A DNA stretch of 64,000 nt from IMG/VR virus record IMGVR_UViG_2562617057_000010, positions 1-64,000 of that record. The stretch is one strand, 5' to 3'. The stretch is from a virus (taxonomy: Duplodnaviria; Heunggongvirae; Uroviricota; Caudoviricetes). A program made the translations under genes and the position numbers. The notes under the pieces are model-generated. The model searched no databases. It had not been told where the DNA came from and saw nothing but the letters and a program-made list of their open reading frames with translations. Within the stretch, counting starts at the first letter, position 1, and every line of letters begins with the position of its first letter. Positions 18,694 through 19,000 of this stretch are shown here, piece by piece.

Positions 18694-18736
18694 CCTCACC
18701 GTGCCCGCCTGAAGCCGTGGGGCTTTTATGACTAGG

Positions 18737-18882
18737 TAATTTATTCAAGATAACCGGGAAGAGATTAAAAAAGACGGGAATAGATTGGAATCAACAAGTT
18801 AGGAACTCAAGGTTTTCAAGATAAAGCGAGTCCAAAAATGTTAAACGGTTCGATATCAATAAAACATTCAAGATAACTCACA
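18737..18882. repeat. Left-end transposase-binding repeats (3x ATTCAAGATAA)
   Basis: Copies at 18744-18753, 18815-18824, 18867-18876, spaced 71 and 52 bp. Confidence 0.6.
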
Positions 18883-19000
18883 GGTTCTTACAATAGCCTT
18901 TAAAGACCGTTCAAAAACGATTCAGGTGTTTATTATAGCGCTGATGGGTGCAAGCGCCAAAACCAATGTAATTTTAGCACAGCTAGGCACTTGCACTGGG

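Follow-up and report, generated by a model that had tools for sequence, protein, structure and literature searches.

DDE transposases and retroviral integrases have their textbook model in Mu transposition, and the ends of Mu are regarded as fixed, with TG/CA termini, a consensus site of 22 bp and a target duplication of 5 bp. A 64,000-nucleotide stretch of the viral record IMGVR_UViG_2562617057_000010 (positions 1 to 64,000; hereafter the window) contains a Mu-like prophage whose two tips each carry three copies of a short repeat that is unlike the site found in Mu, which raises the question of what these repeats are and which protein reads them. An initial annotation, made from the sequence letters, had suggested that the phage is a Mu-family mosaic whose ends are recognised by a distinct module, and this description was borne out, as a Mu body is joined here to a transposase and ends that are not those of Mu. 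From sequence comparison, we consider it very probable that the six ATTCAAGATA(A/G) repeats are transposase-binding attachment (att) sites, L1-L3 and R1-R3. The Mu-type prophage that carries them appears intact and is a recombinant, combining a Mu body with ends of the Sp18/vB_YpM_5 lineage (see Table 1 for coordinates).

With one mismatch or fewer, the 11-mer ATTCAAGATAA has eight matches in the window, against 0.81 expected. Three are direct copies at the left tip, on the + strand (18743, 18814 and 18866, where the second, TTTCAAGATAA, has one mismatch), and three are inverted copies at the right tip, on the - strand (55011, 55046 and 55068, where the last, ATTCAAGATAG, has one mismatch). 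One-mismatch 11-mers also occur off the ends, at 27241-27251 (-) and 61513-61523 (+) (ATTCAGGATAA and ATTCGAGATAA); these were judged to be chance matches, two being a number compatible with chance. The invariant 9-mer TTCAAGATA is found exactly six times in 64 kb, always at the two tips, against an expectation of 0.41, a count that was reached in 0 of 100 shuffles. The three repeats per end claimed by the initial annotation are therefore present where it had placed them, as six exact copies; its left-hand coordinates (18744, 18815 and 18867) correctly give the first T of the 9-mer, and 18727, where it had the element begin, is the true left terminus according to homology breakpoints. Measured from the termini, the 11-mers occupy offsets 17-27, 88-98 and 140-150 on the left and 17-27, 39-49 and 74-84 on the right, in a single orientation, so that the asymmetry first remarked on in the initial annotation, with copies spaced at the left end and packed at the right, is real.

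The same arrangement is found in related prophages. The 9-mer lies at offsets 18, 89 and 141 from the left terminus in the window, the complete E. coli genomes STEC346, FDAARGOS_943 and VL40, one Logan contig and two Salmonella contigs, while in RM9088 the third copy is at 140, not 141; among the IMG/VR contigs matching the left-end pattern, four of six have 18/89/141 and the remaining two have 18/88 only and 18/89/140. The spacers between copies diverge among relatives, while the offsets and the 9-mer stay constant. Across 16 unique sites from four diverged lineages (the window, STEC346, RM9088 and Salmonella), TTCAAGATA is invariant, is preceded by A in 14 and followed by A or G, and has AA 5-6 bp upstream, with GG(A/T)AA at -9 to -5 in L1, R1, R2 and R3. 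This phylogenetic footprint of positions and 9-mer indicates that the repeats are under constraint. The initial annotation had named absence of the motif from related transposable phages as grounds for refutation; the motif is present in related prophages, at matching offsets.

The boundaries of the element were defined by megablast comparison with complete E. coli genomes, in which homology stops at 18726/18727 (left) and 55094/55095 (right), giving a transposable prophage of 36,368 bp (18727-55094). The uninterrupted site in E. coli CFSAN029787 reads GGGGCTTTCGTTATACC. In the window, the left junction is formed by GGGGCTTT followed by TATGACTAGG..., and the right junction by ...GCGCTTTA followed by CTTTCGTTATACC. 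Because the right-hand CTTT is preceded by a phage A, where a 5-bp duplication would need G, the duplication is 4 bp long. The host context is a P2-like prophage, with the gene for gpL (head completion) on the left flank and that for gpM on the right. The insertion falls in the gpM-gpL intergenic region (window 16946-18699 and 55101-58084), which is intact in CFSAN029787, and it probably interrupts the P2-type late operon.

The window element ends 5'-TA...TA-3', and the same termini (TATGAC...GCTTTA) were found at five other ATTCAAGATA insertions. Near-identical, motif-bearing ends occur at 11 different flanks (the window, STEC346, FDAARGOS_943, VL40, RM9088, the locus pair L009/L010 and five IMG/VR contigs), six of which have both ends and a clean 4-bp duplication: CTTT, ATTC, GAAA, TTCA, AGGA and GATA. 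RM9088 contributes no duplication, its right end having been cut by an insertion sequence (IS) element. When Sp18 (TAAA) and Mu_JNE122137 (AGAG, annotated as 4 bp by its depositors) are included, a 4-bp duplication is seen in 8 of 8 independent insertions, with a fifth matching base excluded on both sides in most. A 5-bp duplication, sought by shifting the termini by one base in either direction, was rejected, as the fifth base is excluded on both sides for CTTT, ATTC, GAAA and TTCA (on the right it is the phage A, unlike the left-flank base); for AGGA the fifth base, and for GATA the following base, matches by chance. A mariner-like duplication of TA was likewise rejected, since the empty site has no TA between CTTT and CGTT, as were TG...CA termini hidden two bases inside, where the right end reads TAAAGC. 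Thus the element inserts at many unrelated sites with a short duplication, as a Mu-like phage does, and has neither the TG...CA termini that are canonical for Mu and D108, and in which Mu itself ends, nor their 5-bp duplication. vB_YpM_5 also ends 5'-TA...TA-3', and the right end is ...TA in Sp18, Mu_JNE122137, vB_YpM_5, Kp4866-3 and the window, with TA or TG at the left.

The duplication is 5 bp in Mu and 6 bp in B3, and TG-CA ends were kept in all Mu- and B3-like phages described until 2021, when TA-TA ends with 6-bp repeats were reported in Leptospira prophages and their occurrence in other bacteria was posed as a question (PMC8705779). Literature searches for enterobacterial Mu-like phages with TA ends or a 4-bp duplication turned up only this Leptospira paper. 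The ends are not discussed in the Yersinia phage paper or the Sp18 papers, and no description of the ATTCAAGATA specificity was found in the searchable literature. This specificity class is rare, its end type being present in about 6 of 5,426 complete E. coli genomes and in 9 IMG/VR contigs. In the record of E. coli STEC388 (NZ_CP041425.1) we also noted four places that match ends of this prophage type; a left and a right end (at ~2852469 and ~1939240) both abut fliH, 0.9 Mb apart and on opposite strands, a layout that suggests a chromosomal inversion between Mu-like copies.

Local blastn against Mu (NC_000929) was used to delimit the Mu-derived part of the prophage. Positions 21994-55020 are collinear with Mu 3229-36653 at 86-98% identity, and nothing aligned with Mu to the left of 21994 or to the right of 55020. 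Mu-type B, kil-gam, mor, C, lysis, head, tail, com and mom are all present, so that the Mu-like character ascribed at the outset to B, gam, mor, C, com and mom is confirmed by that same 86-98% DNA identity from B through mom; the block holding B (21994-25166) is 86.5% identical, and the lengths of the early and late open reading frames (ORFs) all match those of Mu genes. The prophage has no counterpart of Mu 34502-35613, a stretch holding gin and the 5' part of S' (noted at window 53569-54081 and about 53981-54004); with gin missing, the G segment should be locked in one orientation. The non-Mu parts comprise the left 3.27 kb (attL, repressor, ner and nearly all of A) and the right 74 bp (attR), and the left 264 bp had no blastn match among 50,697 phage records. 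The initial annotation had contrasted these ends with a Mu left end that proved correct when checked against NC_000929, and neither tip aligns with Mu; D108 gave no match over the left end, although its att ends were not directly aligned. That homology to Mu stops abruptly at 21994 and 55020 argues for replacement of modules, not drift. The element is a recombinant of Mu and the Sp18 lineage in which the transposase, the immunity region and the att sites of both ends were swapped together as one functional unit, and since the crossover lies inside A, the B-interacting tail of the transposase stays matched to the Mu-type B.

The DDE transposase A, together with the AAA+ target-capture protein B, adjoins a left-end repressor/ner switch, as expected of a Mu-like phage. 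Apart from its C-terminal ~31 residues (the ERDEYLNHSLDILEQ.RRKK tail), A is 24% identical to MuA; the divergence reported by the initial annotation for the N-terminus is thus real but wider, as nearly the whole of A is non-Mu. Pfam searches of A returned HTH_Tnp_Mu_1 (weak), rve-type signals and Mu-transpos_C, but neither DDE_2 nor HTH_Tnp_Mu_2, both of which the same search found in MuA, and the solved sequences closest to the A core are retroviral integrases. The repressor had been called an XRE-type helix-turn-helix (HTH) protein. Its N-terminus is indeed CI/XRE-like, if weakly, but Pfam PF07022 falls below the cut-off and the best family is phrog_3037. Its C-terminal half (residues 87-184) matches phrog_7148, a repressor family that also matches A residues 2-65, so that the protein looks chimeric, with a CI/XRE-like N-terminal HTH and a phrog_7148 C-terminal half.

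To place A among its relatives, we compared its N-terminal 294 residues with those of other transposable phages. Identity is 64% to the Mu-like phage inside Shiga toxin (Stx) phages LC727881/LC727895, which has been described as Sp18-like (PMC10132054), 63% to Yersinia phages vB_YpM_5/6, 50% to Klebsiella phage Kp4866-3, 38% to Mannheimia 3927AP2, 35% to Haemophilus SuMu and ~25% to D3112-like Pseudomonas phages. The proteins matched in a large database belong to E. coli, Shigella, Salmonella and Providencia, while a scan of genome contigs with the A N-terminus yielded two near-identical loci only. Sp18 (of E. coli O157 Sakai), Mu_JNE122137, vB_YpM_5/6 and Kp4866-3 share with the window element 50-66% identity of A over the N-terminal ~300 residues, 81-90% identity of core DNA, the terminal ~16 bp (left end T[A/G]TnAnnAGGTrA..., right end ...GCGCT[T/A]TA), the 4-bp duplication, the right-end TA and the layout of a CI-like repressor with ner. 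The ends read TATGAAGAGGTAAATCATTTGATAC... and ...GGTATCAAATGATTTTGCGCGCTTTA in vB_YpM_5, and TGTAACCAGGTGAATCATTTGATACC... and ...GCGCTATA in Sp18 and Mu_JNE122137, with Kp4866-3 similar. Whereas these terminal ~16 bp are common to the window and the four phages vB_YpM_5, Sp18, Mu_JNE122137 and Kp4866-3, the repeat of the latter is (A)TTTGATAC, and their L2 and L3 are found at roughly 113-122 and 164; Sp18, moreover, has its own body, which is not Mu-identical. SuMu and vB_MhM_3927AP2, distant members of the same transposase family (35-38% over the N-terminus), also have a repeated motif, but this is TTTTGCATAG, at offsets 17-26, their ends are the canonical TG on both sides and their hosts are different.

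Members of the Sp18-like lineage are active, as vB_YpM_5 is a plaque-forming phage (PMC10434027) and Sp18 DNA is efficiently packaged (PMC2669165). In the vB_YpM_5 record MT374853, labelled a 'circular complete genome', the phage termini are joined through ~88 bp of non-phage sequence (4645-4732 of the extracted locus, L004), presumably a consensus of host flanks from virion DNA, so that this is not a true circle. In the related prophage of E. coli RM9088, which lies in nrfA, two IS elements were noted (L008:29938-32553 and 202-1002): an IS66-family insertion in the early region, and an IS21-family element that has cut off the right end, including part of mom.

Since both the repeat and parts of A differ between these phages, we measured the extent to which the two vary together. 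This was achieved by aligning eight A N-termini and computing identity to the window A for each segment. Over residues 124-195, the four other ATTCAAGATA phages are 99, 99, 99 and 75% identical to the window, whereas the three TTTGATAC phages reach just 35-38% (38, 38 and 35%); over residues 196-277, the values are 98, 98, 99 and 79% for the ATTCAAGATA phages and 100, 99 and 85% for the TTTGATAC phages. At 20564, where the variable A segment ends on its 3' side, DNA homology between the window and vB_YpM_5 sets in again. As the window element has ATTCAAGATA in place of TTTGATAC, with the matching A segment replaced, it represents a separate specificity class within the Sp18-like lineage. The end motif does not track repressor type across relatives, and the type of A residues 1-60 follows that of the repressor DNA-binding domain, not the end motif; in RM9088, the repressor N-terminus resembles the I-alpha subdomain of its own A, as in Mu.

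Database proteins were sorted by the helix at residues 181-193 into the types RTISRDPLYQWVLKY, LS(A/E)I(T/S)LKRW..., RSLSRRPLNDWVLAY and GVSVRSLQEWV, and the ends that accompany them were used as tests of prediction. A Salmonella class-1 A, 71% identical in the variable segment, is accompanied by three ATTCAAGATA copies at the left end. The left end that belongs to a class-3 A (helix RSLSRRPLNDWVLAY) holds three copies of a new motif, TTAGGGA(T/C)A (L021:1104-1290, Salmonella GCA_045482915.1); the terminus there reads TATGACCAGGTGAAAT, and the first copy occupies the L1 position (offsets 17-27). A Providencia class-4 A goes with TTTTGCA(C/T). Two predictions from the co-variation thus held, and one brought a third motif to light. 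Judged by these comparisons, the ATTCAAGATA specificity is one of at least four classes of cassette plus motif in the Sp18-like lineage, so that the end-recognition module is distinct, as the initial annotation proposed, but not unique.

The segments of A were then related to the subdomains of MuA. Using hhalign, a profile of the family aligned residues 1-149 with MuA 1-134 at 96% probability, and BLASTP carries the alignment on through MuA I-beta and I-gamma. An AlphaFold2 model of A residues 1-300 (mean predicted local distance difference test, pLDDT, 79; predicted template-modelling score, pTM, 0.42) has a winged helix followed by two helical bundles. The top PDB match in Foldseek was the Mu transpososome 4FCY (probability 0.97, E 0.06), together with MuA I-alpha 1TNS (template-modelling, TM, score 0.67, 32% identity, E 0.06) and, at lower rank, MuA I-beta 2EZK/2EZL (TM 0.56-0.65, E ~6). 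These fold matches are consistent with the domain assignment and support it without proving it. Segment 124-195 likely holds the HTH of an I-beta-like subdomain that reads the distal, variable half-site, for which we propose RDPLYQWVLKY, within predicted residues 181-193, as recognition helix, and the conserved, I-gamma-like residues 196-277 likely read the conserved, proximal half-site.

In its architecture, the element is close to Mu. In both, each end has three sites, which are spaced out at the left and close together at the right; site 1 (L1 and R1) ends at position 27, R1 and R2 are at the same positions with an abutting 22-bp spacing, and the L1-L2 spacers are partly alignable. The I-alpha winged-helix fold (1TNS, 32% identity), the type of B, the last ~31 residues of A and the body from B to mom (86-98% identical) are also shared. 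In contrast, the site is ATTCAAGATA here and TTTCAYT..CGAAA in Mu, the termini are TA...TA and not TG...CA, the duplication is 4 bp and not 5 bp, R3 is inverted in Mu but not in the window element, the gap between L1 and L2 is narrower, the DDE core is of rve type and not Pfam DDE_2, and the repressor N-terminus is not homologous to the I-alpha of A. Compared with the TTTGATAC-class relatives, whose spacing is Mu-like, L2 and L3 of the window lie 24-33 bp nearer L1. D108 and Mu provide a natural example of the exchange of a DNA-recognition module between otherwise near-identical transposable phages. The present element resembles that pair in having swapped a module, and in the way that the I-alpha type of A assorts with the type of the repressor DNA-binding domain, but in D108 and Mu the swap involves I-alpha, repressor and operators, with att ends shared, whereas here it involves the I-beta-like module together with both att ends. 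The Leptospira prophages likewise have non-canonical TA at both ends of a Mu-like prophage, but their transposases are of B3/Tn552 type, their duplications 6 bp and their hosts spirochaetes, whereas the window element is enterobacterial, Sp18-type and duplicates 4 bp (PMC8705779).

Could the repeats serve some other function? The Mu repressor and transposase share operator binding sites, and a non-Mu repressor adjoins the left repeats, so that the copies might be operators for the prophage repressor or Ner, with a role in immunity or regulation and none in transposition. We regard this as highly improbable, as three of the copies lie 36 kb away, inverted, at the extreme right tip, while there is no copy in the repressor-ner intergenic region where Mu-type operators are found. 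Moreover, the STEC346 and RM9088 repressors are just 36% and 21% identical to that of the window, yet these prophages have the same motif and offsets, whereas a Shigella sonnei prophage (L012) has the other motif despite the most similar repressor outside near-identical copies (46% overall, with an HTH that is closely similar by eye and A residues 1-60 that are 88% similar). Slightly less probable still is that this is an ordinary Mu with drifted ends, in which diverged canonical att sites are read by a MuA-type I-beta/I-gamma. The architecture, the 27-bp distance of site 1 and the L1-L2 spacer are all Mu-like, and the right terminal octamer TAAAGCGC resembles Mu TGAAGCGG, but the Mu consensus TTTCAYT...CGAAA is present in 0 of 6 sites, the duplication is 4 bp and not 5, and R3 has an orientation unlike that in Mu. 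The abrupt ends of homology at 21994 and 55020 also speak against drift, as do the low identity of A to MuA (24%) and the absence from A of Pfam DDE_2 and HTH_Tnp_Mu_2. Finally, the element might be a dead recombinant, in which ends and transposase were matched historically and the repeats are relics, a view that could draw on the deletion of gin and part of S', the non-canonical TA termini and the occurrence of this end type in only ~6 of 5,426 complete E. coli genomes. This too is unlikely, if less remote than the other two: early and late ORFs are all of Mu gene length, relatives with TA...TA ends form plaques (PMC10434027), and near-identical ends at 11 flanks, six with clean 4-bp duplications, imply recent transposition.

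We therefore favour att sites bound by A, a reading for which the repeats, their kept positions, their co-variation with a protein segment, the termini and the 4-bp duplications all speak. For binding, the pairing of half-sites with subdomains and the chemistry, we envisage the following. Each site would be bipartite, with a terminus-proximal GG(A/T)AA-type half, found lineage-wide, read by A residues ~196-277 (the I-gamma equivalent), and a distal ATTCAAGATA half read by the HTH in residues 124-195 (the I-beta equivalent). Subunits at L1, R1 and R2, aided by L2, L3 and R3, would bring the ends together in the manner of the Mu transpososome; a nick after the terminal ...TA-3' would be made by the rve-type, integrase-like DDE core (D311, D377 and E417), and the ends would be joined with a 4-bp stagger to target DNA captured by the Mu-type B. 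Several points weigh against this scheme. The att-site reading rests on sequence comparison, and this copy of the prophage is without gin. Nearly all DDE transposases use CA-3', whereas the end here is ...TA-3'. In L2 and L3 the proximal GGWAA half is not clearly present, and the invariance of the 9-mer was partly built in by the pattern with which sites were collected. The Foldseek matches given above have weak E-values, which is explained by the arbitrary geometry between domains in a three-domain model, and, as the hhalign alignment ends at residue 149, the placement of helix 181-193 rests on the BLASTP alignment and predicted helices.

Table 1. Features of the prophage and its ends (window coordinates)
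Feature	Position	Strand	Remarks
Whole transposable prophage	18727..55094	+	Termini 5'-TATGAC...GCTTTA-3'; from breakpoints and empty-site comparison
Target-site duplication, left copy, CTTT (4 bp)	18723..18726	.	Occupied versus empty site
Target-site duplication, right copy, CTTT (4 bp)	55095..55098	.	Preceding base is phage A
Putative L1: proximal GGTAA and distal ATTCAAGATAA	18735..18753	+	Offsets 9-27 from terminus; geometry like Mu L1
L1-L2 spacer	18754..18813	+	Partly alignable with the Mu spacer (CCGGGA.GA.ATT...CGGGA...); MAFFT with Mu, vB_YpM_5 and Kp4866-3
Putative L2 core TTTCAAGATAA	18814..18824	+	Offset 89 kept in diverged relatives
Putative L3 core ATTCAAGATAA	18866..18876	+	Offset 140/141 kept in relatives
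Repressor, 187 residues from MRKAPQG	19001..19564	-	ORF extends to 19621; phrog_3037, E=1e-43
Ner-like regulator (HTH_35)	19729..19980	+	Pfam PF13693, E=1e-13; phrog_769
Transposase A, 701 residues, Sp18-like lineage	19982..22087	+	DDE = D311, D377, E417; last ~31 codons Mu-derived
A codons 124-195 (72 residues), co-varying segment	20351..20566	+	Overlaps the region equivalent to MuA I-beta
Mu-homologous body	21994..55020	+	Last ~31 codons of A, B, kil-gam, mor, C, lysis, head, tail, com, mom
Transposition ATPase B, Mu-type	22122..23075	+	Pfam Phage-MuB_C and AAA_22
Putative R3: GGAAG and ATTCAAGATAA	55011..55029	-	Same orientation as R1 and R2; overlaps T-run of mom terminator
Putative R2: GGAAA and ATTCAAGATAA	55046..55064	-	Core at offsets 39-49
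Putative R1: GGAAA and ATTCAAGATAG	55068..55086	-	Offsets 9-27 from right terminus

Taken further, and with distinctly less confidence than in the att sites themselves, we lean towards the view that the Sp18-type phages of enterobacteria comprise at least four mutually orthogonal transposition systems (ATTCAAGATA, TTTGATAC, TTAGGGAYA and TTTTGCAY), in which an exchangeable I-beta-like cassette of ~70 residues sets the specificity and recombines together with both att ends, and which share ...TA-3' transferred ends and a 4-bp stagger. While exchange of recognition modules among Mu-like phages was already known, the specificity seen here is new, and it goes with TA in place of TG/CA termini and a 4-bp in place of a 5-bp footprint. 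If true, the wider view would answer the question raised in PMC8705779, as TA-TA transposable phages would exist outside Leptospira, and it would provide a protein-DNA recognition code that is directly testable by cassette swaps. These phages also supply candidates for orthogonal Mu-type systems that could be used in mutagenesis. Prophage annotation is affected too, as such elements will be misplaced by boundary finders that rely on TG...CA and 5-bp repeats. We have here a phage that is nearly Mu but runs on another set of transposase and ends, with the determinant of specificity localised to one short cassette, and the four co-varying motif classes offer a ready case for how bipartite HTH domains read transposon ends, while enterobacterial TA termini with a 4-bp stagger bear on how essential the conserved CA is.

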